A DNA stretch of 64,000 nucleotides from a phage, in sequence record PZ386977.1; one strand, 5' to 3'. The notes beneath the pieces are model-generated. The model was not told the DNA's origin. It saw only the letters and a list, made by a program, of their open reading frames with translations, and did not search any database. Below, piece after piece: positions 8,018 through 59,809 of the stretch (its first letter is position 1; each line of letters starts with the position of its first letter). Made by a program: the position numbers and the translations under genes.

Positions 8018-9118
8018 TTACGCTGTGAAGATTTTATCCCACATCGCAACAACTGCATCTCGGTTATACTTCTTCCATACTGCTTCAGCACGTTTAACTC
8101 TAGCTTCGTATGTGTCAGTGAATTCTAATACAGCTTTTGTGTAAAGCGCAACTACTTCTTTCTTAGGAGTAGAGGAATCAATTTCTACACGCACAGTATC
8201 TGGGTCATATTCGAATGTCGCGTGCGGATAATCCTTAAAAACTAACTGAATCACAGGGACACCTTTAGAGATGGCTTCAATAGAACTATTCTCTACTGTA
8301 CCTGTGTCAGGACACGTATTGATAAGTGCTTTAGCTGTTTTAAGACGTTCCATGATTTCACTGTGTGGAGCATCAATAATAACAGGATATTTAGCTGGCG
8401 GTGCCCATTTACTAGGACAGTATCCTGCACCGTTTTCGCCTAGTGCTTTAATCGCTTCAAGAGCAACATCAGTACGACGCATCTTAGTGTCATAACGTTG
8501 AGCACTAATAATCAGATCAGTCGCTGGAAGAACTTCAGGTTTCTCATTCAAACAAATAACCGGATAATCTTCGGCTTCAAACAACGGATTTGCTCGCCAA
8601 TAATCATAATCAATTTTGTCAGTCAGACCTGAAGTCATATAACAATATTTGCGTTCAAATTCACGGAAGGCTTTAGTAGGAGCATAACTCTTGCCACCAT
8701 TCTTATGAATTTGAATAGTCTGGTCCCAAATTTGAACAATGCCACGAGATACCGGTTCAAATGGTGTTGCCATAAAATTCTTATGAACTTTAGAGAGACC
8801 TGCGTCTTTAATTGCCTGAACGGTTAGTTTGGTCGGTTCCATTGTAACAACGAAATCGTACTCATTGATGCCGGCTAGTTCAACAATCTTACGAGCCATA
8901 GTATAACTCATACCTAGACTGAATTTAGTCAGACGACCAACAGGATGATGATTAACCTTCCAGTCACCAAACGTGTCATTATCAAAGCCGATATAATCAA
9001 TATCAGCACCGATGGACACAAGATATTTCAACACATTTAAATGTACCGCTTCAAGACCACCTTGTACACGTTCTGGGTTAAATGGGACTGCGCGAGATGG
9101 GATAAACATAACTTTCAT
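8018..9118 (-). CDS. GT-B fold glycosyltransferase (GT4-like), candidate DNA hmC glycosyl/arabinosyl-transferase
   Basis: 366 aa; N-terminal MKVMFIPS...ERVQGGLEAVHLNVLKYL and C-terminal TGTVENSSIEAISKGVPVIQ resemble GT4 family motifs; occupies the rIIA-39 interval. Confidence 0.7.
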   Translation of the reverse strand: MKVMFIPSRAVPFNPERVQGGLEAVHLNVLKYLVSIGADIDYIGFDNDTFGDWKVNHHPVGRLTKFSLGMSYTMARKIVELAGINEYDFVVTMEPTKLTVQAIKDAGLSKVHKNFMATPFEPVSRGIVQIWDQTIQIHKNGGKSYAPTKAFREFERKYCYMTSGLTDKIDYDYWRANPLFEAEDYPVICLNEKPEVLPATDLIISAQRYDTKMRRTDVALEAIKALGENGAGYCPSKWAPPAKYPVIIDAPHSEIMERLKTAKALINTCPDTGTVENSSIEAISKGVPVIQLVFKDYPHATFEYDPDTVRVEIDSSTPKKEVVALYTKAVLEFTDTYEARVKRAEAVWKKYNRDAVVAMWDKIFTA

Positions 9119-29331: not shown

Positions 29332-29880
29332 TTAACGAGCCCATTTGATGATTTCTGTAATCAAACCATTACGTTCGCTTGCATTAAATCCTATAACTTT
29401 GTTAGCACCATCATGATTAAGTAATTGATACGTTTGGATTTTGTTATGAATTGCAAACTCTTCAAAATGTGAAATGACTGTATTAAAACCGAATGAAGAC
29501 AAAGTAATAAGGTCGTCTTCAAAACTTTCAGTCATTTCGTTACGTGTTAAAATAATTGTGAACACATCATGGTTTTGGCAAAGACGAACATAATCCTGCT
29601 CATAAACATCAAGAACAGAGTCCGCATCTTGTCGAATACGTCCATAAACCCAGTTACTAATATATCCACGGTCTAACAGATAAATCTTAGTAGGGTCTAA
29701 ATAATTCAACATCGTTTCGAAACAGCCAACTTCATTTCTAGACTTAACATCGAAACGTCCATCAACTGTTCGTTTAGGGAAATCAATCTTTACATATCTT
29801 TCACTAATTTCCATTATGTCATTAATGAAAGTTGTTTTACCAGCATTATCCGGGCCATCTACTAAAATAATTTTAGCCAT
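29332..29880 (-). CDS. P-loop kinase-like protein (nucleoside/nucleotide kinase fold)
   Basis: 182 aa; Walker A GPDNAGKTT and LDRGYIS (DRY-like motif of dNK/TMPK kinases); located in the T4 beta-gt interval. Confidence 0.55.
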   Translation of the reverse strand: MAKIILVDGPDNAGKTTFINDIMEISERYVKIDFPKRTVDGRFDVKSRNEVGCFETMLNYLDPTKIYLLDRGYISNWVYGRIRQDADSVLDVYEQDYVRLCQNHDVFTIILTRNEMTESFEDDLITLSSFGFNTVISHFEEFAIHNKIQTYQLLNHDGANKVIGFNASERNGLITEIIKWAR

Positions 29881-29881
29881 T

Positions 29882-30781
29882 TTATTCCTCGATTACGACA
29901 TCTTCGTATTTAGGTATATTATACGGTGAAGAAATTAAAGCATTAAAGTAGATGAACTCACCAAGACCTGGATGGAATACTTCTTCAGGATTTTCGAAAT
30001 ATTGAATCTTCGGACGTCCTTTAAGAATTTGATAGTACTCAGTTTTAGTTGGATTAAAAATTCGAATCAGCGCTTCTTCAGGATACTTATTTCTGTCGAA
30101 ACTATTATTTGGATCAGTTATATAAAGCGGTTGACCTAATTGAATTGCGCATTCAACCACTTGTTCAAAACGATAGCATGGGTCACTAATTCGAAATGGA
30201 TGAAAAATACCATCTAGATGAATAGGAGCCAAATCACCTACAAGACGCTGCATGACGGAAGGACATATAACTTTCTGCGTTACGATAATCTTATTACCAT
30301 CTGCACCTGCGTTAACCAGCACTTCTTTTTGACGTTCATTCAACACAGTAGTTTGAAGTGAACGATTAACAGACAACATGTCGGTTTTTAAGAATTCATC
30401 AATATAAAAACGTGGTTTATTAGGGTCTGCAGTGATATTGAAATTGAATTCTACGTCAAAAGCGCCATCATATCCAGTGATATCTGTGATTAGAAAATCA
30501 CAATCATAATAAGCAATTAATGAATCAACCACAAATTCATTTTCAGACCAGAAATATTTACGAGTGTTATACGCGTTATCTTTATACCATAATGGAACAA
30601 ACTTAAATTCTGGGAAAAGACGTTCACATTCTTTAATATCAGATGCATTACGTGGATATGTAATCACATCACCTGGATTAGCACGGTGCAAATGAAGTTG
30701 GAAGTTGCCATCCTTAAGGATGGCATACTGTCCAGTTTCATAAGACCGCATACTCAAGATTGGTACGCGGAAAATAGCCAT
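29882..30781 (-). CDS. hypothetical protein (299 aa) in the beta-gt slot; candidate DNA sugar-transferase
   Basis: ATG ORF translationally coupled (TAATG) to gene 42; no recognisable motif; positional inference only. Confidence 0.5.
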   Translation of the reverse strand: MAIFRVPILSMRSYETGQYAILKDGNFQLHLHRANPGDVITYPRNASDIKECERLFPEFKFVPLWYKDNAYNTRKYFWSENEFVVDSLIAYYDCDFLITDITGYDGAFDVEFNFNITADPNKPRFYIDEFLKTDMLSVNRSLQTTVLNERQKEVLVNAGADGNKIIVTQKVICPSVMQRLVGDLAPIHLDGIFHPFRISDPCYRFEQVVECAIQLGQPLYITDPNNSFDRNKYPEEALIRIFNPTKTEYYQILKGRPKIQYFENPEEVFHPGLGEFIYFNALISSPYNIPKYEDVVIEE

Positions 30782-31497
30782 TAGTCAAGGAATCCTTTAA
30801 CATAATCAAAATCACGTTCAAACACATGGGCACTTACCATGGTATGAGTATAATCACCAACTTCTACACCGCATTCGTTAGCGATATAATGAAGTAATTT
30901 TCCTTGGAGATAAAAATCCAACTGCATAACAACAGCACAGTTCTGAGAACGCATATGACAGTGGGTATAAAGCTTACCATCACGAATATAATAAGTTACT
31001 GAGTCAGTACATGGATATTCAAGTGTTTCGTCCGAATCAAGCAAAGCCTGATCAGAACTTTCTAGAATTTGGAACACAACTCTTCGAGAGTTAGGTTTTT
31101 CTTTAAGTTCTTTTAGAAGAGTTGGTAATTGGGCCGCAATGCGAGGACCATAGAAAGTGTTGAAGTTCGCCGGCAAAACATCTGATTTTGGTTTAGAAAT
31201 AAATTTAGCGACATTAGGATATGCCTTAAACGCTTCTTCTGCGTTGGTACCACCAGAAATCATAAACTTCCAGAAGTCTTCGGCATATTCATAAGAGATG
31301 CGGTTAATACGTGGGTCGGTCATTTTGAATGATGACGGATTGTCAACAACTACTGTCATGGACCCAATTTCATTACAACGTCCAATACGAGAATCAGTTA
31401 CGAATTCCGGGTTTTCTAAAATTTCACGATTGACTGCTTTAAATGCGGTTTGAAAATCTGCGGCTTTGATATATTTCATTGTGTTATGTTTTCCCAT
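30781..31497 (-). CDS. 42: dCMP hydroxymethylase (thymidylate-synthase family)
   Basis: 238 aa; PCTDSVTYYIRD and MRSQN motifs typical of TS/dCMP-HMase fold; position matches T4 gene 42. Confidence 0.7.
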   Translation of the reverse strand: MGKHNTMKYIKAADFQTAFKAVNREILENPEFVTDSRIGRCNEIGSMTVVVDNPSSFKMTDPRINRISYEYAEDFWKFMISGGTNAEEAFKAYPNVAKFISKPKSDVLPANFNTFYGPRIAAQLPTLLKELKEKPNSRRVVFQILESSDQALLDSDETLEYPCTDSVTYYIRDGKLYTHCHMRSQNCAVVMQLDFYLQGKLLHYIANECGVEVGDYTHTMVSAHVFERDFDYVKGFLD

Positions 31498-31542: not shown

Positions 31543-31779
31543 TTTGAATTTCTTGGCAGTGTTGATATACCGTAAAGCTTCAGCATCGATACTTCCAAGA
31601 ACACTATGAAGAAATGCATCAGCGTAGTATTCCAATTGAACAGGTTCTTTAATCACTTTAGCCGCTTTGGTTTCAAACAGGCCCATAAGGGCCTTTTTAA
31701 GAATTTGTTCGTTAGTGTTCAGTTTAATAGTCAAAATCTCTTCATTAAGTTGATGATTAAAAGTTTTTCTAGAAATCAT
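31540..31779 (-). CDS. hypothetical protein (79 aa)
   Basis: ORF coupled (ATGA overlap) to the upstream 386-aa gene; not membrane-like, so not Imm. Confidence 0.45.
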   Translation of the reverse strand: MISRKTFNHQLNEEILTIKLNTNEQILKKALMGLFETKAAKVIKEPVQLEYYADAFLHSVLGSIDAEALRYINTAKKFK

Positions 31780-32936
31780 TCCGGGTACCTCAGAGCGTCA
31801 TCAGAGTTAGTTATATCAATAATAGATATAGAGTTTTCTGCTAACCCGTTTTTAGATAATTGACGTTTATAATATCTTTCACAATATGTACACGTTGATC
31901 CGCAGATTTCATTAGCACAATCAAAATCTGGATGTCTGAACCACCTTTTTTCTAAAAAGCCATCTAACAAAGAGGTTTCAATATTTACTGTATGTGAAAA
32001 CTCGGTCTCGTTTTCAAGAGTGAAAATGGTCTCTAAAGGCTTCCACAGTTCTAACAAATTACCTTCAAACTTTTCAGAAGCATAAGCTTCAAGAACTTTC
32101 AAAATGTAGTCGGTGCTACCTGTACGTCCTGAAACTTTGAATTGAGTGATACCAATATCATTATAAAGTTTCAAATCTTGAGGACGAACAAAACGAGTTC
32201 TCAACCAGTTAAATGGGTCTGTATCACGAGCTTTAATACAGTGCTGCATTGGATATCCGTTTAAGGATTTAGCATCATCAGCTGTAACATCAGTACTATG
32301 GAAAATATAGCAAGAGTCACGATAGCTACAATGTGTTGTATACCCTTTACCAGCATTAGAACAGAACTCATTTACAAGAACTTCAAATATTATATTGTTC
32401 TTATTGCAAAACTCTGCTGCACGCTTCAGGAAAGAAACTGAACGGTTCTTATGAATTCCGCAACAGACTTTTTTGATGTTATATTGGTCGTGCAAGTATT
32501 TGATTTGAGTTACAGCATCGACATGTAGAATTGTTGAAACTTCAATCTCAATGTCTTTATTGACTTCACGAACAATTTCCATAACAACAGGGTTAGCGAT
32601 AGTAATACGCCATACGCCTATTGACCAAAGATACTGAACATAATCCTGAATAGCTTTCTTCTTCCACTCGACTAGTTCTCTTTTTGAACCAGGATTTATC
32701 GTGTTGAGTGTATAGTTAAAGCAAATACCTAATTCGTTACAACGTTTAACGTAATCTTCTAACATCTTTTTGTCAACGTCAGGAAGCCTAAAATCAGGTC
32801 TGGCTGCTACAAAAGCCATTTCTCTTGTAGAGCCATATACTTCGTTTATCAAGCTATTAGGATAGGTTTTATTGAGCTCTACGATTTTATCAAGAAGAGC
32901 TAAATCAAAATTCGTTCCGATTTTAAAAGTATTCAT
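31776..32936 (-). CDS. Cys-rich hypothetical enzyme (386 aa), part of the modification cassette
   Basis: C-terminal cluster CANEICGSTCTYC plus further conserved Cys; no confident family assignment. Confidence 0.55.
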   Translation of the reverse strand: MNTFKIGTNFDLALLDKIVELNKTYPNSLINEVYGSTREMAFVAARPDFRLPDVDKKMLEDYVKRCNELGICFNYTLNTINPGSKRELVEWKKKAIQDYVQYLWSIGVWRITIANPVVMEIVREVNKDIEIEVSTILHVDAVTQIKYLHDQYNIKKVCCGIHKNRSVSFLKRAAEFCNKNNIIFEVLVNEFCSNAGKGYTTHCSYRDSCYIFHSTDVTADDAKSLNGYPMQHCIKARDTDPFNWLRTRFVRPQDLKLYNDIGITQFKVSGRTGSTDYILKVLEAYASEKFEGNLLELWKPLETIFTLENETEFSHTVNIETSLLDGFLEKRWFRHPDFDCANEICGSTCTYCERYYKRQLSKNGLAENSISIIDITNSDDALRYPE

Positions 32937-32993: not shown

Positions 32994-33380
32994 TTATAGA
33001 TTCGGTTTATATGATTTAAATGTTTCGAATTCGCCTTTATTCATAAGAGCTTTGAATTCGTCAGGACGCATAGCTTTGTCGTCGATAATCCAATCATATA
33101 CTGGTTTATGTGTTAGCAAATTATGGTACTTCAAGCCAATGTTTGCCAAGTTCTGAATCAGACTTGGGAGAATGTCAATTGCTATACGTCCAGGACCTAC
33201 TGACTTCATACCACGAGCAGTGTAAAGCGTTATGGTGTGCCCTGCATCATACAGGGCATTAATGGCGGACACCATTTCGACGTCTGGTTTGAAGTTCACA
33301 TAATCACGATTGTTATTCCATTCCGTGATGCAATCATCGACATCAAAACAAAGATTAAGCATGTTTTCTACACGGTGCAT
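32994..33380 (-). CDS. small HAD-superfamily phosphatase (capless, KdsC-like)
   Basis: motif I FDVDDCITEW, motif II ITLYTARG, motif III/IV K...WIIDDKA; start trimmed to ATG overlapping upstream stop. Confidence 0.55.
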   Translation of the reverse strand: MHRVENMLNLCFDVDDCITEWNNNRDYVNFKPDVEMVSAINALYDAGHTITLYTARGMKSVGPGRIAIDILPSLIQNLANIGLKYHNLLTHKPVYDWIIDDKAMRPDEFKALMNKGEFETFKSYKPNL

Positions 33381-35065
33381 TAGATTCGTTCCCATTGATG
33401 AGTGATATCGCCACCGATTGGACGATAGGAAACACCAGTTTCTTTATCAGTTAGTACCCATTTACCAGGATTTTTTGTAATCAGAGTAGCCGTTACAGGT
33501 TCTGCTACGTCATAACTAATAGAGCCATCTTGAAGTACACGGCCCATGTTACGTAATTGCTTAGTCAGAAGTTCCATACCTTTATAATATGCGGCTACCG
33601 CTTTAAGTGGATTATTCTTGAAATAACCACCTAATGCAATCCAGATAATTGCTACTGCCAAATGATGATACTCGTTAAACGAACTCATCTTTCCATATTT
33701 GTAAACTAATGGATTGATGTTAATAGTCACATTACAAGTTGTTTCATCAATAATAAACTGACCCCAGGTCGGATTAGCATTGAATTCATCATAACCTGAA
33801 ACAGCATAAAGCACTTTAGCTTCATCATACAATTTTGGCCCGTAAATCTTGGTTTCACCAAAATATCCACGAGGGTCGATAAACTTGACTTCGCCGTTAT
33901 CAGTAATCATAGTATTACTGAAGTTCGGGTCACCATGAATAACAGAGTACTGTCCCTGAGAACGGTTATGATAACGAATAAGATGTTCTAAAGCTTGTTT
34001 CAACATTGGCTTCAGACGTCCAATCTTAGTGTAGTTCACGTGTGTGATTTTACCAAATGAATCAATCAATGGCTGAATGCTTTCACAACGATCAATAACT
34101 TTCGTATAGAACTCTTTAGTGAAATCACGGCGAACAGTTTCAGGACTTACAAAATAAGTGTCTGTGCTGAATTTCAGTGCATCTAAAATTGCATCAACAA
34201 TTTGTGGACGAGCAAGACTTGATTTGGATTTAATATATTCAAATGCCGGCTTACCTTTAATACGTTCCATTTCAAAGTTATTTTCATTAACAGAAACTAA
34301 CTGAGGGACTGAATCTGATTTCACTTTCAAATACCATGAAATCTCATCTTTCTGAAGAGCTCGACCCTGTTCGGTTAATGCGAATTTAGTTACAGTTTCT
34401 TCACCAATTTCAACTGCATTAAAACTACGATTAAGTTCACGAACTTCATGAGCTTTTTCAAGTTTAGGCATATCACCTAAATCAATTATATTCATAAGCT
34501 CTGATTTATTGAATGCGCCGCTGTAAAGGAATTCTACGAAATCACGTCCTTTGCAGTATTCATGAATTTCCTCATCAGTAGAACCCATATAGAATTCCCA
34601 GTCTTTGAACTGATAAATTCCTACAACATTACCACCTGTTGAACCTACGTTAGTGATATTTTCACCATCGAAATTATATCGACATTCATCACCCTTAACA
34701 TAGATTGCGTTAACATTCCAAGACCATGAACCAAAGTCAGGAATAATATCACACCAGTTAACAATTACGTTATGGCCATCTAAATCTTTGTATAATTTAG
34801 CAAGAGCATAAGCAGAACCATACGCTTCATCAACTGTACGAATAGTCACATTGAACCCTTCTTGCTCGCAATAAGCTCGAACAGTTTCAGCAAATTTTGA
34901 ATGAACTACTACAATAATTTCATCTGCGCCAAGGTCAGAATAAATTGTATACAAATTGCTCAGAATAGTGTCTTGTTTATAGTTAACAAGCACCTTAGGA
35001 ATATGGTGCGTTATTGGATACAAACGAGTTGCCAGTCCAGCACCAAGAATAACAGCTTTTTTCAT
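33380..35065 (-). CDS. bifunctional sugar-1-phosphate nucleotidyltransferase (N-terminal) / sugar kinase (C-terminal, APH/choline-kinase fold)
   Basis: 561 aa; N-terminal AVILGAGLATRL and GSAYAL motifs; C-terminal HGDPNFSNTMI and FIDPRG kinase motifs. Confidence 0.65.
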   Translation of the reverse strand: MKKAVILGAGLATRLYPITHHIPKVLVNYKQDTILSNLYTIYSDLGADEIIVVVHSKFAETVRAYCEQEGFNVTIRTVDEAYGSAYALAKLYKDLDGHNVIVNWCDIIPDFGSWSWNVNAIYVKGDECRYNFDGENITNVGSTGGNVVGIYQFKDWEFYMGSTDEEIHEYCKGRDFVEFLYSGAFNKSELMNIIDLGDMPKLEKAHEVRELNRSFNAVEIGEETVTKFALTEQGRALQKDEISWYLKVKSDSVPQLVSVNENNFEMERIKGKPAFEYIKSKSSLARPQIVDAILDALKFSTDTYFVSPETVRRDFTKEFYTKVIDRCESIQPLIDSFGKITHVNYTKIGRLKPMLKQALEHLIRYHNRSQGQYSVIHGDPNFSNTMITDNGEVKFIDPRGYFGETKIYGPKLYDEAKVLYAVSGYDEFNANPTWGQFIIDETTCNVTININPLVYKYGKMSSFNEYHHLAVAIIWIALGGYFKNNPLKAVAAYYKGMELLTKQLRNMGRVLQDGSISYDVAEPVTATLITKNPGKWVLTDKETGVSYRPIGGDITHQWERI

Positions 35066-35106: not shown

Positions 35107-35250
35107 CTAGTTAAAGCATTCATACTTTGCTTGTAGCCCAATCATAATCCATCCGATTATAAGAGTCGGAATCATTACTGGAGCCGTTAAGCTCCAGTAG
35201 ATAGTCATGACAAGCATCAATAGTAAAAGTCCTATTGTTATTGCTTTCAT
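35107..35250 (-). CDS. small hydrophobic peptide (about 47 aa)
   Basis: MKAITIGLLLLMLVMTIYWSLTAPVMIPTLIIGWIMIGL; ATG overlaps isomerase stop (ATGA); below ORF-track cutoff. Confidence 0.35.
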   Translation of the reverse strand: MKAITIGLLLLMLVMTIYWSLTAPVMIPTLIIGWIMIGLQAKYECFN

Positions 35251-35882
35251 TGTTCGCCTCGTAACATGGCACCTAGTGAACCGCCTGGATGGAACTTAAG
35301 GAAGTCATTAGAGGTAAATCCACGTTCAGACGAAAGGTTGATAGCGAACGTATCGATAAGCGCTAACAACAATGTAGTGGACATGGTCGGAGCCAGAGAA
35401 TTCTCATCAACCTCTACCGCGATGCCTGTACAGAACGTATAATCAAAAAGAGCTTCGTATTCTTGCGGAATGTCAGGGTTACAATGTAACAGAATCTGTT
35501 TAACCTGAGGACGAATCATACGAAGATGTTTAGCAACACCTATCATTTCTTCAGTCTTACCAGAACGACTGATGTGAACTAATACATCATTAGGTGCAAT
35601 AAATCCTGCGTCGCCATGAGAATAATGCCCGGTGTTCAAATACATGCTAGGAATACCTAGTGAAGCAAAAGTCTCGGAAGCTTTAGTTGCGATATTAGCG
35701 TTCTTACCAACACCTGTAATAATTACTCGGCTTTCATAATTACTCAGTCCAGGGCGACGAAGAGTTTCAAGAATAGCATTATATCGGGCAGAGTTTTGAC
35801 TAATTACTTTAGCCATAGTGGCAAGAGATGAAGCTTGTTTTACGATTGCGTCAATAGCGATAGTGATTGGTGTAGTTTTCAT
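35247..35882 (-). CDS. D-arabinose-5-phosphate isomerase (SIS domain, KdsD/GutQ type)
   Basis: 211 aa; ITGVGKNANIATKASETFASLGIPS...SHGDAG and HISRSGKTEE match the KdsD SIS-domain core. Confidence 0.7.
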   Translation of the reverse strand: MKTTPITIAIDAIVKQASSLATMAKVISQNSARYNAILETLRRPGLSNYESRVIITGVGKNANIATKASETFASLGIPSMYLNTGHYSHGDAGFIAPNDVLVHISRSGKTEEMIGVAKHLRMIRPQVKQILLHCNPDIPQEYEALFDYTFCTGIAVEVDENSLAPTMSTTLLLALIDTFAINLSSERGFTSNDFLKFHPGGSLGAMLRGEQ

Positions 35883-35922: not shown

Positions 35923-38634
35923 TCAAAAATCGAACATATCGAACAGAGATGCTTTCTTCTCGTAATCGAGTTTCGCTGCTGATGTGAATCCTTCAAGTGG
36001 TTTAATAAATGTCTTCTCAAGGAGAACAGTGTAGTCCATCCAATGAAGTACGTCGTCTTTAATTAAATCTGTGATTTCAGTACCAGAAGGCCATGCGATA
36101 CATTTATCACCGAATGGGTTTCCTTCACGTAAAGGCAGAACATATACCTTTTCGCCTTCTACAACTTGTGGAGCATCAATATTACCTTTGATAGCCCGGT
36201 TATACGTCAGAATTCCACGAATATGGAACGGACATTTTGGACCAGGGAATCCACCTACATCATATTTAGCAATGTTATTCGCAGAAGATACCGACGCGAT
36301 GCTAATATAATTCAATTGACGGAATTCTTTTTCAAACTCTTTAAAATATTCTTGTAATGATTCTTCACCTTCTTGAAGCATACGACGAATACATTCTTTA
36401 AGAGCTTTCTGTACCGCTTTAGGAGTTGAAGATTTCTGTGTTTCGAGACCCATGATTTTGAGTTTAGGCTCAGCGTAACGAGTACCTTCCATATCCCACA
36501 CGTTTAATGCGTAACGTTTCTTACCAGTCCAGAATCCACCAATACCTTTAGAGCCAAGTGGAGGACCAGCGATAGCTTCTCGGTCCATGAACATTAAGTG
36601 TTGTTTATTGTTCATGTATTCACACATTTCACGGAAACCTCTATCAATAGCAGGTTCCATACGTTCACGAGCGAACTTATCTAAGAAGTCCACCCAATGG
36701 TTGGTATCACGGAATTTAGATTCACCAACCTTATCAATAATTTTATCAGCAGATACGTAAATAGAGTCTGTATCACCATATAGAACGAAAGCTTCACCTT
36801 CTGTACCACAAACTTCATTCAGATATTCATTAACTTTACGTTCAATCCACTGTAAAGCCATTTGCCCGAATGTTGTGATTGCAGTAGCATTACGCAAATC
36901 ATAATAACGGAACCAAACGTTGCCAAGTGCACCATAAAGTGAGTTGATAAGCAATTTACGGTTAATTTGTGCAGTCATACCTGCAACTTCAGTACGTTGA
37001 GCTCTAAACAACATTTCATTAAGAGATTTAGCAGACAACTTTTTAATCTTTTCTTTAATCTCATCGCTGAAGTCGAAACGATAATCAACATCTAACGGTT
37101 CGTCAACAGAAAGATTAGGATTATGCAATGCCTCTTTAATTATTTCACCATTACGTTGAGCTGCAAGCATGTAACCTTTATGTTCTTTACGTTGATTAAA
37201 GACCTTAGTGATTTCAGTTGGAACTACACCATCACGGTCTTTATAATACATCATGCCATTAGGAGAGCAGCTGTACACATCTGAAGGACGTTCAGCGATT
37301 GCGTTAATATAATCATGCAATGGAGCTACTTTAAACGTTCCTGCTATTGTTTCTGGGCTAATATTCACTTGGCGAATAATACTTGGATACAGAGATGTAA
37401 GGTCGAAACTCATTACATATTTGTATCGATTTGGAATAGGTTCCTTAACAAAAGCGCCAGGATAAGGTTGAACCGGGTGAGAACGACCTTGTGGAATCAC
37501 CTTGTTCTGCTCTTTAAGGCTATTAAAAATAATAGCATCCCATGTTTTAATTGGGCTGAACACAGATTGAATCTGTATCTTAGCATAATAACCCATGTCC
37601 AAACTCAAGTTGATGAACTGGCGCTTAGCATCAATTTGCAATACACGATACACGTCGATGATGTTATAAGAAATATATCGTTGGTGATTGCTTTCACGAA
37701 GCTTAGAAATAGGGCCGTCATATTTCAGTTTACCAACGTTCAATTCAAATTCTGAAATGTAATCCAGAGAATACGACGGTTGATTAGTAAAAGAGAATTT
37801 TTTGTAAAGGTCAATGTAATCAAGAACAGAGATACCGAACAATGTAATGATTTCACGAGAACCATACATGTTTTCGATAACTTTAACACGAGTTTTACGA
37901 TGTGGTGATAAACGTTTCGCAGTAGATTCACCAAAAATATTCTTGATTCTGTTATACACATATGGAATATCAAATGACTCAACGTTCCATCCAGTCAAAA
38001 TGACAGGAGTTTTCTGTTGCCAGAAGTTGAGATATTCCATCAACAATTCTTTTTCGTTATCGAACGGCATATAAATGATTTTATCGATAATTTCAGATGG
38101 AACTTCATCACCACCTTGTTCTTGAAGCTTAGCAGCGATTTCAATAGACCATTCTTCCACATTGCCGTATGGAGAATTCAATAGATCAAATACATAGAAC
38201 CTGTCGTCAATTGAGTCATAATGGGTGATAGCATCAATCGGATGTTTTGCTTGTGACGGCTCAGGGAACCCATCCGGAGATGTTACTTCGATGTCGAAGT
38301 TAGCCACACGAATTTTTGTATGGTCGTATTTGATTTCATAGTTATAAGTGTCAGACAAATACGCCAATTTGAAATCGTCCATGCCAAGTGCTTCAAGTCC
38401 GATATCTTCCATGCGTTTAATCCATTGGGAGGCATCACGCATATTAGCGAACAACTTACGAGTACACGGCTTACCGTAGATATCGAAATATTTCGTGGCC
38501 TGACTTTCTGGACAATGAGCAAACAATGATGGTTTATATTCTACTTCACGAGTACGTTCACGGCCATTAGAATCGATGTAACGTTCAAAAATTGAATCAC
38601 CAATCTGTTCAACCGTTAAGTAAAATTCTTTCAT
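35923..38634 (-). CDS. 43: DNA polymerase (family B)
   Basis: 903 aa; exo motifs FDIE and YNIIDV, pol motifs DLTSLYPS and YGDTDS; sequence is RB69-like from memory. Confidence 0.95.
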   Translation of the reverse strand: MKEFYLTVEQIGDSIFERYIDSNGRERTREVEYKPSLFAHCPESQATKYFDIYGKPCTRKLFANMRDASQWIKRMEDIGLEALGMDDFKLAYLSDTYNYEIKYDHTKIRVANFDIEVTSPDGFPEPSQAKHPIDAITHYDSIDDRFYVFDLLNSPYGNVEEWSIEIAAKLQEQGGDEVPSEIIDKIIYMPFDNEKELLMEYLNFWQQKTPVILTGWNVESFDIPYVYNRIKNIFGESTAKRLSPHRKTRVKVIENMYGSREIITLFGISVLDYIDLYKKFSFTNQPSYSLDYISEFELNVGKLKYDGPISKLRESNHQRYISYNIIDVYRVLQIDAKRQFINLSLDMGYYAKIQIQSVFSPIKTWDAIIFNSLKEQNKVIPQGRSHPVQPYPGAFVKEPIPNRYKYVMSFDLTSLYPSIIRQVNISPETIAGTFKVAPLHDYINAIAERPSDVYSCSPNGMMYYKDRDGVVPTEITKVFNQRKEHKGYMLAAQRNGEIIKEALHNPNLSVDEPLDVDYRFDFSDEIKEKIKKLSAKSLNEMLFRAQRTEVAGMTAQINRKLLINSLYGALGNVWFRYYDLRNATAITTFGQMALQWIERKVNEYLNEVCGTEGEAFVLYGDTDSIYVSADKIIDKVGESKFRDTNHWVDFLDKFARERMEPAIDRGFREMCEYMNNKQHLMFMDREAIAGPPLGSKGIGGFWTGKKRYALNVWDMEGTRYAEPKLKIMGLETQKSSTPKAVQKALKECIRRMLQEGEESLQEYFKEFEKEFRQLNYISIASVSSANNIAKYDVGGFPGPKCPFHIRGILTYNRAIKGNIDAPQVVEGEKVYVLPLREGNPFGDKCIAWPSGTEITDLIKDDVLHWMDYTVLLEKTFIKPLEGFTSAAKLDYEKKASLFDMFDF

Positions 38635-38646
38635 TTAATTTCCTTT

Positions 38647-38662
38647 AGACGAGTTATTGTCT
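38647..38662 (-). promoter_or_regulatory. putative gene 43 translational operator hairpin
   Basis: mRNA AGAC-AAUAACUC-GUCU followed by AAAGGA SD and AUG; loop resembles the T4 gp43 operator loop as I recall it. Confidence 0.4.
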
Positions 38663-38715
38663 TTTGTTTGTTGATGAACTTATTATACTCCAAATGGGAC
38701 CGGAGTCCCATTGCT

Positions 38716-41846: not shown

Positions 41847-42038
41847 TTATTCGTAGAAGTCAGTAACTGTCCATGCGGAATTGCGATTAGACATTATTTT
41901 ATTATACTCATCTTTAAAAGCAGATTTGAGCATTTGTTCAGTAACAATATGTTCTTCACCTGAAAACGTATTGGTCAAAACATATTTTTTAATTTCAGGA
42001 ACAACGAGAAGATGTTGTCCGGTTGAATACTCCGCCAT
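41847..42038 (-). CDS. hypothetical protein (63 aa)
   Basis: ATG ORF with GGAG RBS. Confidence 0.45.
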   Translation of the reverse strand: MAEYSTGQHLLVVPEIKKYVLTNTFSGEEHIVTEQMLKSAFKDEYNKIMSNRNSAWTVTDFYE

Positions 42039-42062
42039 TATAAATCTCCGTGTTTAAAGCAA

Positions 42063-42070
42063 TATAAATA
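42063..42070 (+). promoter_or_regulatory. late-promoter-like TATAAATA on plus strand upstream of the HNH endonuclease gene
   Basis: exact octamer about 45 nt upstream of plus-strand ATG at 42116. Confidence 0.4.
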
Positions 42071-42115
42071 GGTTTATCAATTTATCTGTTGCTGTATCAA
42101 ATAAGGATTTAGTAA

Positions 42116-42832
42116 ATGAATTATAACTCAATATACGAAAAGCTTATCACCAATGCTAAATCAAGAAGTTTAGATGGTTATACAGAACGTCATCACATTA
42201 TACCACAATGTTTAGGTGGAAGTGATGATGCTTTAAACTTAGTAGACTTAACACCAGAAGAACATTATTTGGCACATCAACTGTTGGTAAAAATCCATCC
42301 AGATAATGCCTCTTTAATATATGCTGCTCGTATGATGACCATATCATCTCCTAAAGCAGATAGAAGCAAAAACAAATTATTTGGATGGCTTCGACGTAAG
42401 AATCAGGAAGTTCAAAAGAATAAAGAATTCACTGCTGAAACCCGTAAGAAAATGTCCGAGTCTGCAAAAAATAAACCAAAGATTACCTGTCCACATTGTG
42501 GTTTAACTGGAACTGAAGGAAACATGCGACGTTGGCATTTTGATAATTGTAAACAAGGTCCAACGCCTAAAATAGTAAAATTATCTGATGATGAAAAACA
42601 GAGGATAAGTTCTAAACTTAAAACAATAGAGTGGAAACTCCACACATGTGTACACTGTGGTCTAGAAGGAAAAGCTTGCAATATAGTTCCTCATGAGAAA
42701 AACTGTAAACTTAATCCTAATAGAATAAAACCTAATGTAACAATAGTGGAATGTCCATACTGCTCTAAAAGTGGTTCTATATCAAATATGAAAAGATGGC
42801 ATTTCGATAATTGTAAATATAAGCCTCATTAA
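42116..42832 (+). mobile_element. free-standing HNH homing endonuclease gene with three C-terminal zinc-finger repeats
   Basis: 238 aa; HNH core YTERHHIIPQCLGG...EHYLAH; three repeats of CPxCG...NMxRWHFDNCK; opposite strand to all neighbours; overlaps gene 46 stop by 4 nt. Confidence 0.8.
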
Positions 42833-44517
42833 GAGGCTTTCATTACAGTAAATCGTCCAACTTTACTCATCTGAAGATGTTGTCCATACGCTTGTGGGTC
42901 ATGGTCTCTGTGACTAATTATAAACACGTTTGCATCGGTTAGAGAGTTAAGAATTGTTGAAATAGCTTTAATACCTTCAGAATCAGTCGCGGAATCCATG
43001 ACTTCGTCCATAATTAATGTATTGATTCTAACACCAGAGACCTTTTCAGCAATATCTCGCCATGTAAACAACAATGCGATATCGATACGTGCCTTTTCAC
43101 CTTGACTAAATGAAGCATAACTAAAATCTTCACGACCACGTGATTTTATAGATTCATTGAATTCTTCGTCAATAGAAAACACATAATCAGCTTCCATGAT
43201 TTTAAGGTAATGGTTAATCTGCTTGTTGAACAGAGGCACATATTTTTTAATGATAGCACCTTTAATACCAGAATCTTTTAACATATCTGTGATAATACCA
43301 CGATGGTATTTTTCAAGAACGATATCTGATTTTGTTTTAATGATTTTATCAAGTTCTTTTTGAAGCAAAGCTATCTCATCGGCATGGTCGATAAATTCAG
43401 CTGAGGCTTGTTCTATTGCAGCTTTAACTTTCTTAGCTTTATCAATAGTGGCAATCATTGCTTGTTTCTTGGTACGAATATCAGATGCAAGGTCCTGTTT
43501 AGTCTTAACATTAGCTCTATATTCGTCCACTAGGACACTCAGATTATCTCTGTGAGAGGTAAGTTGCTCGAATGAGTGATTACATTCATGAAGCTTATCG
43601 GTAATCTTAGAGACAATAGGATCACCCTGGTGCAACTGTGATGCACAAGTAGGACATGTGCCACCGTCATGATACATCTTAATAACTTTGTTATATGAGT
43701 CGATTTTAGATTTAATCAAGAATGCTTCTTGTCCGATCTTGTTGAATGCCTCAGTAGGGTCTTCGTCAAGAACGATATTAAGTAGACGCTCGTTAGCTTC
43801 TTCAATTTCTGCTTTTAATGACCGAGCTTCTTTGGCTAGGTCGTCATACATATTCTGTAGACGCGCTACATTATCACCAGATAATTTCTTTTGACGTTCG
43901 ATATTCTCATTATAAATCTTAATTTGTTGGATAACACCATCTTTCTTGGCATCGAGAACTTGTCCCTGGGAATTAAGTTCTCGAACTTGAGACTTATTGA
44001 TTTTATCCATTTCGGCAAGTGTTCCAACTTCTAATAAGTCTTCAACAAGCTTTCTGCGAGCAGGGGTGCTAAGAGCCATGAAAGGGGTATACCCTGCCGT
44101 CCCAAGCACAACGATCTGTTTAAAAGACGCGTATGACATTCCGATGCTACGTTCAAATTCTTCTTGGAAGTCGCGACTGCTGGCAGATTCATCAAGACGA
44201 ACACCGTCAACGGAGATTTCGAAAATATTGGGCTTTTGGCCACGTTTAATGAAGTATTTTTTATCATCGAATTCCATCCAAAGCTCAACTAAGAGCTCTT
44301 TCTTGTTCGTGCTATTAATGATTTGTCCTTTCTTAACATCACGAAATGGTTTACCGAAAAGTCCGAAAGTAATGGCTTCTAACATCGTAGATTTACCACC
44401 GCCATTTTTACCAGTGATTAATGTCTTTTGGACTTTATCTAATTGGATATCAATAGGATTCCCACCTACCGACATGATGTTTTGATAACGAACACGATTT
44501 AATTTAAATGATTTCAT
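42829..44517 (-). CDS. 46: recombination endonuclease subunit (Rad50/SbcC-like ATPase)
   Basis: 562 aa; Walker A GKNGGGKST, coiled-coil middle with CPTC zinc hook, C-terminal signature. Confidence 0.85.
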   Translation of the reverse strand: MKSFKLNRVRYQNIMSVGGNPIDIQLDKVQKTLITGKNGGGKSTMLEAITFGLFGKPFRDVKKGQIINSTNKKELLVELWMEFDDKKYFIKRGQKPNIFEISVDGVRLDESASSRDFQEEFERSIGMSYASFKQIVVLGTAGYTPFMALSTPARRKLVEDLLEVGTLAEMDKINKSQVRELNSQGQVLDAKKDGVIQQIKIYNENIERQKKLSGDNVARLQNMYDDLAKEARSLKAEIEEANERLLNIVLDEDPTEAFNKIGQEAFLIKSKIDSYNKVIKMYHDGGTCPTCASQLHQGDPIVSKITDKLHECNHSFEQLTSHRDNLSVLVDEYRANVKTKQDLASDIRTKKQAMIATIDKAKKVKAAIEQASAEFIDHADEIALLQKELDKIIKTKSDIVLEKYHRGIITDMLKDSGIKGAIIKKYVPLFNKQINHYLKIMEADYVFSIDEEFNESIKSRGREDFSYASFSQGEKARIDIALLFTWRDIAEKVSGVRINTLIMDEVMDSATDSEGIKAISTILNSLTDANVFIISHRDHDPQAYGQHLQMSKVGRFTVMKAS

Positions 44518-44768: not shown

Positions 44769-44997
44769 TACACGCTTCGGCCATTTTAAGAATAGAGCCA
44801 GGAGTATCGTTGTCCATTATATTAAAGCTAAATTCAATAGCCCAGTCGGTACAGACATGAACGGCTTTAACTTCATTGCCTTCAACGCGTAATGGCTCAA
44901 TCCAATACTTGATAGTGTTCTCGAATCCATCATCATCTTTAACGTCCATTTCAACTTCAAGCCTGAGTCCAGCATTGTTAAATTCATCTAAAGTCAT
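44740..44997 (-). CDS. hypothetical protein (85 aa)
   Basis: ORF between genes 47 and 46. Confidence 0.45.
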   Translation of the reverse strand: MTLDEFNNAGLRLEVEMDVKDDDGFENTIKYWIEPLRVEGNEVKAVHVCTDWAIEFSFNIMDNDTPGSILKMAEACIEDAYNDED

Positions 44998-46013
44998 TGT
45001 GTTGCCTCAATATAAAGTTCGTTGGAATATTTGACCAGCGCTTCTCTGTCTTCGTCTGAGATATCTGGAATCGCGTCAATATATTCTTTAATGATATCTT
45101 GAAGTGATTTAATCTCGATTTCCTGGTCGTCATCAGATTCAACACTGTTATCAACTTTAGAAACCATACGAAGAGAGTGAACTACTTTTTCAAGTTCAGA
45201 TTCAAACTTAGTCAACTCTGAATCAATTTCTGATACTATAACACGTACGGCTAGATTAGTATAATCAGAATAATTGATTTTGCCTTTAAACGGATAAGTG
45301 ATTCGTCGATGCCATGTTGTTTCATTAGGAATAAATTCCATACGTTCAACATCGGTGTCAAATACCCAGAATCCTCGAGGGTCGTTTTCATCACCTGCAG
45401 TAAGGGTCCATGGTGTCCCAATATATTTGACATTAGCAGCTTCAGAGATTGTGTGGAAGTGGCCAGACCAGACTTGTTTATAGGTCTTTAAAAAATCAGG
45501 TTCAAGCCCATGAGACTTCATTCCTTTATAGAAATAAAAACCATTCAGTTCCCAGTGCCCAACACAAAAAGAAGCAGATGAAGTTTTGATATGTTCAAGA
45601 ATTTCACCAGTATTTTCTTCGCACATCCAAGGAATTAAATCAATCAAACATCCGTCAAAATCTACTGTAGTAGGCTTATCATATACTTTAACATTAGGAT
45701 ATTTAGCTAAAAGCTCAGTAGAAGCGTTTGGAGTTAAAGTATTTTTAAAGTGCATATCATGGTTTCCTACAACAGTATGTAGGGTAATACCAGCATCATC
45801 AAGCATTTGAACTATTTCACGTGCGAACTCCATAGTTTTATGCGTGATTGCTTTTCGCACATCAAAAATATCGCCGTATTGAATCCATGTAGTAATTCCA
45901 TTTTTCTTAGAATATTCTATCGCCTGCTTAATTCCATCCAACTGAATGGATTGAACCCACTCATCATCGGCTTTAACACCTAAATGCCAATCACCTAAAT
46001 TTAAAATTTTCAT
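44994..46013 (-). CDS. 47: recombination nuclease subunit (Mre11/SbcD-like phosphoesterase)
   Basis: 339 aa; N-terminal MKILNLGDWHLG and GNHD calcineurin-like motifs. Confidence 0.85.
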   Translation of the reverse strand: MKILNLGDWHLGVKADDEWVQSIQLDGIKQAIEYSKKNGITTWIQYGDIFDVRKAITHKTMEFAREIVQMLDDAGITLHTVVGNHDMHFKNTLTPNASTELLAKYPNVKVYDKPTTVDFDGCLIDLIPWMCEENTGEILEHIKTSSASFCVGHWELNGFYFYKGMKSHGLEPDFLKTYKQVWSGHFHTISEAANVKYIGTPWTLTAGDENDPRGFWVFDTDVERMEFIPNETTWHRRITYPFKGKINYSDYTNLAVRVIVSEIDSELTKFESELEKVVHSLRMVSKVDNSVESDDDQEIEIKSLQDIIKEYIDAIPDISDEDREALVKYSNELYIEATQ

Positions 46014-46057
46014 ATTATTTCCTCATTAGTTAATTCATTCTATCATCCGTTTATAAA

Positions 46058-46084
46058 GCAAAAAAGGAACTCCGAAGAGTTCCT
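46058..46084 (-). terminator. rho-independent terminator upstream of gene 47
   Basis: AGGAACTC-TTCG-GAGTTCCT hairpin followed by TTTTTTGC on minus strand. Confidence 0.65.
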
Positions 46085-46295
46085 ATCCACATAGTACACC
46101 GTACAGAGGCTCATTTGAACTTTTAAATCGAATGGGCTTGTATGTAATAGTTCCTTCGGCTTTAGCTTTATCATAAGACTCTTTAAAACGTCTCATTCTT
46201 TCTGCTTTGCCTTTACGGATTTTATCGAAATTTTCAGAAGTCGGGATGTTCGTCATGCATAAGCACCTCTCAGAAAATGCCTAAATCGATTTCTC

Positions 46296-46517
46296 TCATC
46301 GTTTCCACCATTTCTTAACTTGAAATGAATCAACCCACACGAGTTGTTTTGGGTCTGCCTTTACAATAGGCGGACAAATTTCTGTAATAGAACCGTCGTG
46401 ATATTCCTTTTCAGAGATTTTAACGCAAAGAGGACCTCCCAATTTAAGGGTGAACCCTGCGTTCAGCTTCAGACGTTTAAACTTTGTTTGAACTAGCGCC
46501 ATTAATGATGTCCTCAA
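46296..46517 (-). CDS. hypothetical protein (73 aa)
   Basis: ORF in the 47-55 interval where T4 carries alpha-gt. Confidence 0.4.
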   Translation of the reverse strand: MRTSLMALVQTKFKRLKLNAGFTLKLGGPLCVKISEKEYHDGSITEICPPIVKADPKQLVWVDSFQVKKWWKR

Positions 46518-46800
46518 TAGCCTGACGAGTAGTAACCCATTGGATTTTAATTAACTTGTCGTTATATGGTTGTCGTAGAATATCCCGAGATTTCTTAATA
46601 GCATATTCGTAAGCTTCGAAGTTGTTTTGAATTGCTGCTTCTTGAGCATGAGCATAAAGACGGTTTAGTTCAAAACGATTCTTTTTAAGAATCTTTTCGG
46701 ATTTTTTACGTGCTTCAGCTTCATTTTTCTTTTGGATTTCTTGTAGCATTTTAGCTACTGCATCTTCTGCTTCTTTATTTTCAATAATCTCGGTAGTCAT
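46477..46800 (-). CDS. hypothetical coiled-coil protein (107 aa)
   Basis: ATG ORF. Confidence 0.45.
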   Translation of the reverse strand: MTTEIIENKEAEDAVAKMLQEIQKKNEAEARKKSEKILKKNRFELNRLYAHAQEAAIQNNFEAYEYAIKKSRDILRQPYNDKLIKIQWVTTRQAIEDIINGASSNKV

Positions 46801-46801
46801 A

Positions 46802-47017
46802 TTATCTCATTAAATTAAAATAAAAACGTCCATCCTCTTCAATACAGAACTCATACTCAACCGGAGTCCCATTTATCGAAAATGACACGTCATGTGGGTT
46901 CAAAGGGTCGATGTCAAAATTAATTTTAAATTCACGACCCAACAGTTTTACCAAATAAGGGATTGCTTCGTCAAAAGGTTCTTCTAAGTAGTTAGAGATG
47001 TCAATTGTCATCCTCAT
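46802..47017 (-). CDS. hypothetical protein (start trimmed)
   Basis: ORF 46802..47095 trimmed to internal ATG to reduce overlap with gene 55. Confidence 0.35.
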
Positions 47018-47558
47018 ATAAAAAATCCAAACTAGGCGAATCGCTAACAACTTCCTTCTTTTCAGCCCCAGGAGCTTTATAAGCGGATTCTTCATAATGC
47101 GTCATTTTATCGTAGATGTCTTGAATAAACGTTTCATCTACCAACGCTACCATATCATCGTCATGACTGTCGTAGACGTTATGAACGAAGTAACTATATT
47201 TCTTTGCAACTTCCTTACGTTCTTTTTTGATACGTTGGACAAAAGCATTAAAACAAGCTCGAGTTATGTATGCATGTGGGTTATTGTACTTAGTTTCGTC
47301 GAAATTATGAAGTCCCTTAATAGAGGCTTCAATCCCATCTGCAATCATCTCCTGCTTCCAAGACTGGGTATATCCTGAAAAGTTGAAACGTTTGGACAGG
47401 CCTTCGGCGATAAGCATAATTGCTAAACCGATGGTATCATTCTGACGAATAATTTTGTTTGGGTCTTTATTATTTAAGAGCTCCTTTTTCCACTCGATTA
47501 TAGCGGCGAGAAGCTCTTTATTATTCACATAGTTATTTTTAGGTTTTTGTTCAGTCAT
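47001..47558 (-). CDS. 55: late-transcription sigma factor
   Basis: 185 aa; N-terminus [24 protein letters not shown]; size equals T4 gp55. Confidence 0.85.
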
Positions 47559-47579
47559 AAGTACCTCTTAGCTCAATTC

Positions 47580-47614
47580 ATAGGTCTATTATATCATAAT
47601 ATTTAGAGACCTAT
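47580..47614 (-). promoter_or_regulatory. inverted-repeat element with TATAAT upstream of gene 55
   Basis: ATAGGTCT ... AGACCTAT 8-bp arms around an AT-rich loop; no clear -35. Confidence 0.4.
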
Positions 47615-47630
47615 CTTAAAGCACGAGATA

Positions 47631-47900
47631 CTATCGGAGCAAACAATAAGCCTGAAACACTTTTTCCATTAAACGTTTGAACTCATGGATATCGATATAA
47701 AGCTCAGTAAGACCGGCATTATAAAGAAAATCTAAAAAGTTCTCATGTGTTTCGTTATAGTCGCCTTCGTTTAATTGAGATACATGAGTTTCCCAAAAAC
47801 CAACACCTTTAACGAATGGAAAATACGTGACTTTCATGTATTCGTCAACATAAAATTCGCCCAGCTTTTCTTCAGTTATACTGATTCGAGTTAATTTCAT
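47631..47900 (-). CDS. hypothetical protein (89 aa)
   Basis: ATG ORF. Confidence 0.45.
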   Translation of the reverse strand: MKLTRISITEEKLGEFYVDEYMKVTYFPFVKGVGFWETHVSQLNEGDYNETHENFLDFLYNAGLTELYIDIHEFKRLMEKVFQAYCLLR

Positions 47901-54852: not shown

Positions 54853-54870
54853 TTAAAATTTTCTCGCAGG

Positions 54871-55167
54871 TTATTGTTCTACCCATGAACAAGAGACTTC
54901 AAAATCAGGACCACCGTATTCCCAGTGATATTCACCAACAGGAATCCAGTCACCGTGCTCGTTTTCTTCATAGTCCTCAGGCTCAAGGCCAACGAATCGC
55001 CATTGGACACCGATGATTCGATTACCCATTAATATACGAAATTCACCCCATGGATTATCGATAGCATACTGAATATCGTTCTTGGCACGAGAGCACATTT
55101 CTTGATATAATAAAGCTTCTAATTCACCCTGGTCATAAGGGCCAGGGAAAGTTAAATCAATACTCAT
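54871..55167 (-). CDS. hypothetical protein (98 aa)
   Basis: ATG ORF. Confidence 0.45.
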   Translation of the reverse strand: MSIDLTFPGPYDQGELEALLYQEMCSRAKNDIQYAIDNPWGEFRILMGNRIIGVQWRFVGLEPEDYEENEHGDWIPVGEYHWEYGGPDFEVSCSWVEQ

Positions 55168-57088: not shown

Positions 57089-57116
57089 AATATTTTCCTC
57101 TCGTTAAGATAGATTC

Positions 57117-57146: not shown

Positions 57147-57150
57147 TATT

Positions 57151-58110: not shown

Positions 58111-58136
58111 TTTATATTCCTCATGTTGAAAAATTT

Positions 58137-59807: not shown

Positions 59808-59809
59808 AA

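Follow-up and report, generated by a model that had tools for sequence, protein, structure and literature searches.

In phage T4, the gene of the alpha-glucosyltransferase (a-gt) lies between genes 47 and 55. The stretch of phage DNA analyzed here (sequence record PZ386977.1; 64 kb, hereafter called the window) carries only small open reading frames (ORFs) in this interval, raising the question of whether these ORFs have taken over the role of a-gt and of what has become of the glycosylation of the phage DNA. A megablast search with positions 44900-47700 matched 738 phage records, the best ones being Escherichia or Shigella phages of the genus Mosigvirus or records clustering with Mosigvirus; the top identity was 99.8%, to Mosigvirus-type phages. 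The same contiguous 47-55 arrangement was found in 147 records, with at least 80% of the query covered. Furthermore, the first 45 kb of RB69 (94-97% identity) and the complete 168.7-kb genome of vB_EcoM_JQD51 (about 96-97% identity) are collinear with the window. The source phage is an RB69-like T-even phage of the genus Mosigvirus, and the window covers 64 kb of its genome, whose size is about 169 kb, two-thirds of this genome lying outside it.

All genes around the interval are located on the minus strand. The interval is bounded by gene 47 (44994..46013; 339 aa), encoding an SbcD-like recombination nuclease subunit with 86% full-length identity to T4 gp47 and 88% identity to RB69 gp47, and by gene 55 (47001..47558), encoding the late sigma factor (91% identity to T4 gp55 and 99.5% to RB69 gp55). 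The sequence-only reading had placed three ORFs between them, at 46296-47017. These ORFs are real, with lengths of 73 aa (68 aa when counted from the ATG), 107 aa and 71 aa, but the 987 bp separating the two genes contain four small ORFs, a 57-aa gene located at 46083..46256 having been overlooked. This gene encodes a DUF5486 protein (Pfam PF17588, 97.3 bits for a cut-off of 27) and is orthologous to a-gt.2 from T4 (76% identity, tblastn E value of 3e-24) and from RB69 (95%). The a-gt.3 orthologue (46296..46502) encodes 68 aa from an ATG at 46502 that is preceded, 9 nt ahead, by GAGGA, the 73 aa corresponding to the mechanical ORF that extends to 46517 from an upstream TTG; its product matches phrog_1648 (2e-34) and shares 71% identity with T4 a-gt.3 (tblastn E value of 4e-29) and 100% with RB69 a-gt.3. 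Its start overlaps by 26 nt the a-gt.4 orthologue (46477..46800; 107 aa), which encodes a DUF2654 protein (PF10849, 96.6 bits for a cut-off of 25) sharing 58% identity with T4 a-gt.4 (tblastn E value of 2.5e-32) and 100% with its RB69 counterpart. Contigs of about 167-169 kb associated with Acinetobacter also carry homologues of a-gt.4 (49-51% identity). The a-gt.5 orthologue (46802..47017) encodes a 71-aa DUF5491 protein (PF17595, 48.2 bits for a cut-off of 27), or 69 aa if the RB69-style start at 47011 is used, and its 5' end overlaps the 3' end of gene 55; it shares 47% identity with T4 a-gt.5 (tblastn E value of 1e-14) and 100% with its RB69 counterpart over 69 aa.

In total, three of the four small ORFs reach Pfam gathering scores, the fourth (a-gt.3) being the one that matches phrog_1648. 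In all four, the differences with T4 are most numerous at third codon positions (12/14/34 at the three positions for a-gt.3). Since they combine family matches with this excess of third-position differences, the four ORFs are real genes under selection. The order and orientation of a-gt.2 to a-gt.5, directly downstream of gene 55, are the same in the window, T4 and RB69, and the four small genes bear the same annotation in a record of a marine Mosigvirus. No significant match was obtained with NCBIfam for any of the four, nor in a PDB sequence search for a-gt.3 and a-gt.4. Homologue searches retrieved only five proteins for a-gt.4 and only four for a-gt.3, too few for a useful profile, and the AlphaFold2 model of a-gt.3, based on an alignment of five sequences, was unusable (pLDDT of 45). 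The only mention of a-gt.2 to a-gt.5 found in the literature search was a table entry about the insertion site of mobB.

Comparison with annotated genomes showed where the interval differs from that of T4. The T4 record displays the order 47 / 47.1 / a-gt / mobB / a-gt.2 / a-gt.3 / a-gt.4 / a-gt.5 / 55, whereas RB69 (NC_004928), annotated in 2003, displays the order 47 / a-gt.2 / a-gt.3 / a-gt.4 / a-gt.5 / 55, with gene order and spacing identical to those of the window. The differences with RB69 are gp47, which is only 88% identical, and an 807-bp HNH homing-endonuclease insertion that the window carries upstream of gene 46 and that RB69 lacks. According to blastn, the match between the window and T4 runs through position 46015, where T4 reaches the start of gene 47, and picks up again at position 46050, which corresponds to T4 sequence just downstream of a-gt.2. 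Thirty-four bp (46016-46049) therefore stand in place of positions 36450-38701 of the T4 genome, which carry 47.1, a-gt and mobB, the latter encoding a free-standing HNH homing endonuclease. Genes 47 and 55 on either side, the four small genes, a terminator hairpin and the TTGCTTTA motif that follows a-gt.2 are conserved between the window and T4, and T4 has 2.25 kb of additional sequence, with 47.1, a-gt and mobB, between this motif and gene 47.

The site of the T4 cassette corresponds in the window to the 69-bp intergenic region that separates gene 47 from a-gt.2 (46014..46082, minus strand). A terminator scan detected a terminator-like hairpin at 46065-46084, with an 8-bp GC-rich stem, a UUCG-type loop and a run of six T (fold of -14.5 kcal/mol, z of -2.2). 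It is accompanied by a MotA-box-like sequence, TTTGCTTTA (46054-46062), by TAGAAT (46037-46042) and by a GAGGA located ahead of the ATG of gene 47 (46020-46024). T4 shares the hairpin and the TTGCTTTATAAA motif, which lie there between a-gt.2 and mobB, and both phages display a TAnnnT hexamer 11-12 nt downstream of the TTGCTTTA motif. The combination of TTGCTTTA and TAnnnT resembles a T4 MotA-dependent middle promoter and, judging from these motifs, may function as one. In T4, mobB was reported to be transcribed from a promoter located in the upstream non-coding region (PMC2988022). This terminator/promoter-like unit lies ahead of mobB in T4 and immediately ahead of gene 47 in the window. No RNA family reached the Rfam gathering score anywhere in the window.

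These comparisons bear on the proposal that the small ORFs are present instead of a-gt and constitute a functional replacement, i.e., a new small-protein modification module housed in the a-gt slot. They are indeed located where a-gt would be expected and none of them has a known function. However, T4 carries a-gt itself and, in unchanged order, an orthologue of each of these ORFs (47-76% identity). Furthermore, the small ORFs match neither a nucleotide-sugar-binding domain nor an enzyme family in Pfam or NCBIfam, and the window encodes two genuine glycosyltransferases at other positions. A replacement by these ORFs is extremely improbable: since T4 has them too, it is in effect already refuted. 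Their names, a-gt.2 to a-gt.5, are only positional: they are conserved neighbors common to glucosylating and arabinosylating phages, and this shared presence argues against a role in DNA modification. The comparison of synteny with T4 thus bears out the absence of a-gt from the 987 bp, together with that of 47.1 and mobB, and not the idea that the small genes distinguish the window from T4.

Glucosyltransferase genes were then searched for in the whole window and in the complete JQD51 genome, and no a-gt or b-gt homologue was found in either. With T4 a-gt and b-gt as tblastn queries against these two sequences, the best E value was 1.4; for a-gt alone, the best values were 1.4-2.4 with tblastn and 1.1 with phmmer --max. 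A phmmer --max search of the same sequences with T6 ba-gt (from MH550421), T4 a-gt and T4 b-gt, performed against 971 stop-to-stop segments of at least 60 aa, gave a best E value of 0.16, obtained with ba-gt. Of the 29 window ORFs compared with Pfam, none matched AGT (PF11440) or T4-Gluco-transf (PF09198), while the T4 positive controls scored 862 bits for AGT and 325 bits for T4-Gluco-transf on b-gt. Both genes are probably also absent from the rest of the genome, as suggested by JQD51 and by the published statements on RB69. A tblastn search of all phage records with T4 a-gt retrieved 657 records distributed in three bands of identity (at least 90%, about 66% and below 60%) that fit Tequatrovirus, Klebsiella phages and a few others.

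The b-gt slot of T4 has been replaced too, as the sequence-only reading had proposed. The stretch between uvsX (28061-29233) and gene 43 (35923-38634) spans 6.8 kb in the window, compared to 3.8 kb in T4, where it carries segA, b-gt, 42, imm and imm.1. The following genes of this cluster are on the minus strand unless only a position is given. The first gene after uvsX, in the former b-gt slot, encodes a nucleotide (thymidylate-type) kinase (29332..29880; phrog_761 thymidylate kinase, 5.7e-45; 99% identity to RB69p045). It is followed by the candidate gene of arabinosyltransferase 1 (29882..30781; 299 aa), located at the b-gt position, beside the gene-42 homologue. Its product has the two-Rossmann-domain GT-B fold and no Pfam or PDB sequence match. 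Comparisons of its family by hhalign with a-gt and b-gt from T4 and with arabinosyltransferase 2 gave probabilities below 1% in each case (0.09% for b-gt), and its kinship with these transferases is visible at the fold level only. The positional homologue of gene 42 (30781..31497) encodes a protein of the ThyA superfamily, a 5-hydroxy-dCMP synthase with 98% identity to RB69 gp48. After a 79-aa ORF (31540-31779) come the genes of a 386-aa Peptidase_U32-family protein (31776..32936; PF01136, 42.2 bits for a cut-off of 22.4; 99% identity to RB69p050), of an AfhF-like HAD-type sugar phosphatase (32994..33380; TIGR01689 capsule biosynthesis phosphatase, 3.8e-13; 99% identity to RB69p051) and of an AfhE-like bifunctional sugar-1-phosphate nucleotidyltransferase/kinase (33380..35065; 99% identity to RB69p052:53). 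This last protein has an N-terminal Pfam NTP_transferase domain, weak matches to kinase families at 308-409 and matches to NCBIfam uridylyltransferase families. A 36-aa ORF homologous to RB69p054 separates its gene from that of an arabinose-5-phosphate isomerase with a SIS domain (35247..35882; Pfam SIS, 38.8 bits; phrog_5670, 2.7e-116; 96% identity to RB69p055).

Outside this cluster, between rIIA.1 and gene 39, the window carries the gene of arabinosyltransferase 2 (8018..9118, minus strand; 366 aa), a GT4-like GT-B protein with 99% identity to RB69 ORF003c and a match to PDB 9iqz/9ir0 ("phage HY126 glycosyltransferase") with an E value of 3e-247. Each gene of the cluster is 94-99% identical to its counterpart among RB69p045-p055, and the hydroxylase and arabinosyltransferase 2 of the window hardly differ from the HY126 proteins of known structure. 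Every described component of the ara-5hoC pathway of Mosigvirus and other Straboviridae (RB69, HY126, NP, Bas46/47; DLP3, LC53, Thanatos) is present in the window, and no difference was found among the parts tested. This gene content and orthology, the signature residues of the ThyA-like protein and the fold of arabinosyltransferase 1 are direct observations. Compared to T4 a-gt and b-gt, which also have a GT-B fold, the transferases of the window display no detectable sequence or profile similarity and differ by the sugar donor, the acceptor base and the genomic positions.

Which base receives the sugar depends on the gene-42 homologue. The ThyA-like protein has only 25% identity to T4 gp42. 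An alignment of E. coli ThyA, T4 gp42 and RB69 gp48 showed that it possesses the catalytic Cys and the substitutions D169N, N177D and L143E (E. coli ThyA numbering), N177D being linked to cytosine specificity, whereas T4 gp42 has kept an Asp at position 169. It is nearly identical to PDB 9iqc/9ir2/9iqu (E value of 1.5e-159 for 9iqc). D169N has been described as the predictor of 5-hydroxy-dCMP synthases, and the RB69 enzyme, 98% identical to that of the window, catalyzes a flavin- and O2-dependent hydroxylation of dCMP (PMC13326640). Since the gene-42 homologue is so distant from gp42 and carries D169N, arabinose is expected on 5-hydroxycytosine and not on hmC.

The main alternative is that ara-hmC is made, as first proposed for RB69 by Thomas et al. 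2018 (PMC6024577), only the sugar and the transferases differing from T4. In favor of it, ara-hmC was reported in RB69 in that study, and the gene-42 homologue and dCMP hydroxymethylase are both members of the ThyA superfamily. However, in addition to the low identity to gp42 and the substitution at position 169, NMR, LC-MS and 18O2 labeling of RB69 placed the arabinose on C5 through an ether oxygen, with incorporation of 18O2 (PMC13326640), and the study of the Mosigvirus phage NP independently reached the same result, in agreement with 5-hydroxycytosine, and called the earlier ara-hmC assignment erroneous (PMC13390438). We consider ara-hmC very unlikely in this phage. A simple loss of a-gt and b-gt, leaving the modified cytosine unglycosylated, would be consistent with the failure to detect a-gt, b-gt or ba-gt by sequence in the window and in JQD51, but the window encodes a complete UDP-arabinose pathway and two intact GT-B transferases with 94-99% identity to those of phages shown experimentally to arabinosylate their DNA, and such a loss is scarcely conceivable. 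By far the best supported reading, to which we give a probability of about 0.93, is that of an RB69-like phage whose interval contains the conserved a-gt.2 to a-gt.5 genes, in which the T4 cassette is absent and which does not need any hmC glucosyltransferase because it makes no hmC. The sequence-only reading had suggested that the phage has swapped its whole hmC glycosylation chemistry. The glycosylation chemistry is indeed different, but the base is not hmC; the idea of a swap is therefore right in a stronger form than stated, and it was already known.

By analogy with RB69, HY126 and NP, for which the chemistry and the enzyme activities have been described, the modification would proceed as follows in this phage. 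The ThyA-like flavin- and O2-dependent enzyme would convert dCMP to 5-hydroxy-dCMP, and the modified nucleotide would be incorporated during replication. UDP-arabinofuranose would be produced by the arabinose-5-phosphate isomerase, the bifunctional kinase/uridylyltransferase and the HAD phosphatase. The two GT-B transferases, encoded in the former b-gt slot and beside rIIA, would then add the first and the second arabinose to 5-hydroxycytosine in DNA. The transfer of arabinofuranose to 5hoC has been proposed for RB69 gp46:47 and gp3 and has been reconstituted in vitro for DLP3 (PMC13326640). Both RB69 and NP contain 5-hydroxycytosine bearing one or two arabinofuranoses (PMC13326640, PMC13390438).

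One gene of the cluster, that of the U32 protein, is given in the published pathway only as a "sugar or heterocycle reductase", with no discussion (PMC13326640). For the U32 proteins RlhA, TrhP and UbiU/V, a role has been indicated in hydroxylations that depend on prephenate and not on O2; C5 of cytidine (rRNA) and C5 of uridine (tRNA) are among their targets (PMC6599085, PMC10990095). A profile built from 47 homologues of the phage protein (down to 25% identity) matched TrhP and UbiU by hhalign with probabilities of 95.5% and 92.7%, respectively. Residues E185 and C192 align with the essential E162 and C170 of TrhP, with a motif spacing that is not canonical, and C203, C209 and C233 align with the cluster ligands C169, C176 and C232 of UbiU, in a register that differs from that of the TrhP alignment. 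C192 and C233 are the same in all 47 homologues, and the consensus also has a Cys at positions 203 and 209; a second Cys cluster, CX4CX3CX2C, located near the C terminus, is nearly invariant. A MAFFT alignment with the four E. coli paralogues misaligned the motif and was discarded in favor of the profile alignments. The U32 protein was found by tblastn in 222 phage records, with at least 82% identity and across phage genera, and Acinetobacter is absent from the host names listed. Arabinosyltransferase 1 was found by tblastn in 349 phage records, including 57 Acinetobacter phages, and the U32 gene is absent from the equivalent clusters of the two genomes examined, Acinetobacter phage Berthold and Dhakavirus MX01. 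The relationship between the presence of U32 and host oxygen is imperfect: the Acinetobacter phages are devoid of U32, but so is MX01, a Dhakavirus of E. coli (one genome).

In four phages (Entb_45, LC53, Thanatos-1 and Rgz1), a small gene adjoins the U32 gene or lies just downstream of it, with an overlap in three of them. The Entb_45 gene codes for a genuine chorismate mutase of type II (CM_2 in Pfam, 40.9 bits), and six of the eight active-site residues of EcCM are kept in all four phages. The gene of this chorismate mutase, whose catalytic residues indicate an intact enzyme, was detected by tblastn in 51 phage records, in the same cluster and beside the ThyA-like gene among the records listed. 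In the window, its position is occupied by the unrelated 79-aa ORF; the hypothesis of a diverged chorismate mutase was rejected for this ORF (hhalign probability of 0.07%, no Pfam or NCBIfam match and no BLASTP similarity). Outside the region corresponding to the window, JQD51 carries the gene of an AroF/G/H-type DAHP synthase (TIGR00034, 428 bits). This DAHP synthase occurs in 213 phage records, compared to 222 for U32, and the two distributions are almost alike; its hosts are Escherichia (125), Klebsiella (25), Shigella (12), Proteus (7), Serratia (6), Enterobacter (4) and Edwardsiella (3). Chorismate mutase makes prephenate, and DAHP synthase and chorismate mutase together lead to this compound. 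Because of this link to prephenate and because the ThyA-like hydroxylase needs O2, we tentatively propose, from the gene association and the conserved residues, that the U32 protein could be an O2-independent, prephenate-dependent C5 hydroxylase providing gut-dwelling phages with a second, anaerobic route to 5-hydroxycytosine. We regard this role as possible rather than probable. The ThyA-like/U32 pair would parallel the TrhO/TrhP and UbiH,F,I/UbiU,V pairs of E. coli. No paper covered by our search connects these subjects; He et al. 2026 and Mahler et al. 2025 lay outside this search, and the proposal may already be published.

Overall, the 47-55 interval illustrates a known difference between T4 and RB69-type phages and involves no new biology. 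The gene layout has been available in GenBank since the annotation of RB69, and the missing glucosyltransferases and the arabinose pathway of RB69 and Mosigvirus were published in 2018 and 2025-2026 (PMC6024577, PMC13326640, PMC13390438). The use of the finding is to classify the window as a Mosigvirus with arabinosyl-5-hydroxycytosine DNA. From this classification one can predict to which restriction enzymes, type IV systems, DNA glycosylases and CRISPR nucleases the phage would be resistant or sensitive. It should also be emphasized that, despite their names, a-gt.2 to a-gt.5 are independent of glucosylation. The association of U32, chorismate mutase and DAHP synthase may be new. If it is true and unpublished, it would offer a testable answer to the question of how a base modification that requires O2 can take place in the anoxic gut, and it would provide the first DNA-precursor substrate for the poorly understood family of U32 hydroxylases.

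The terminator-like hairpin (UUCG loop, T6) found after a-gt.2 in the window, together with a MotA-box-like TTTGCTTTA with TAGAAT (46037-46084, minus strand), is conserved in T4, but the next genes after this unit are mobB and a-gt in T4 and gene 47 in the window. In T4, the a-gt cassette sits downstream of this shared regulatory unit. The N-terminal half of T4 MobB is 44% identical to a 238-aa HNH homing endonuclease of the window (ORF 42116-42832, plus strand), which is encoded within an insertion of 807 bp that separates genes 45.2 and 46 (42034-42839). Both RB69 and the complete related genome JQD51 are devoid of this insertion, and only 14 of 165 related records carry it, so the 238-aa protein is a polymorphic free-standing homing endonuclease.

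Comparison with RB69 also revealed that gp47 (44994-46013, minus strand) shares only 88% identity with its RB69 counterpart, against 99-100% for its neighbours (a-gt.3, a-gt.4, a-gt.5 and gp55). The gp47 region forms a local mosaic patch, perhaps originating from recombination. In both the window (24301-24970, minus strand) and RB69, the imm and imm.1 homologues are located upstream of gene 41, whereas in T4 they are found between genes 42 and 43, a place filled in the window by the arabinose cluster.

A megablast against JQD51 left short stretches of the window unmatched (305-549, 25766-26189, 54866-55149, 57330-57449 and 61982-62205), which are indels or divergent segments, and identity falls to 89% over the final 1.8 kb. 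In the JQD51 record (PV204681.1), product names appear shifted by one gene across long stretches; for example, a-gt.5 is labelled 'RNA polymerase', gene 55 'hypothetical protein' and the dCMP deaminase gene 'deoxyheptonate aldolase'. The annotation of this record should not be trusted.

Several large ORFs of the nrdC-tk region (56138-61237, minus strand) have weak or no Pfam matches: DUF7235 for the 319-aa ORF, weak matches to AAA and HTH for the 333-aa ORF and none for the 316-aa and 331-aa ORFs. None of them belongs to a glycosyltransferase family.

Within the arabinosylation cluster, the U32-family protein (31776-32936, minus strand; related loci L012, L013, L014 and L015, and L006:4165-5157 in JQD51) appears to have retained the Glu/Cys motif seen in RlhA, TrhP and UbiU, which are prephenate-dependent hydroxylases. 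Phages of other genera encode a catalytically intact chorismate mutase of 79 aa next to the U32 gene or just downstream of it. Exactly this position is taken in the window by another 79-aa ORF (31540-31779, minus strand), homologous to RB69p049, in which the catalytic arginines of the mutase are missing and which shows no similarity to that enzyme by sequence or profile. Non-orthologous displacement of the mutase is one possible explanation, the presence of an unrelated gene another. Among phage records, the U32 protein (n = 222) and AroF/G/H-type DAHP synthase (n = 213) have nearly the same distribution, and the U32 protein is missing from the arabinosylation clusters examined in an Acinetobacter and a Dhakavirus phage. 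Taken together, the motif, the adjacency to chorismate mutase, the co-distribution with DAHP synthase and the absence from these clusters suggest that the U32-family protein would provide an O2-independent route to 5-hydroxycytosine.
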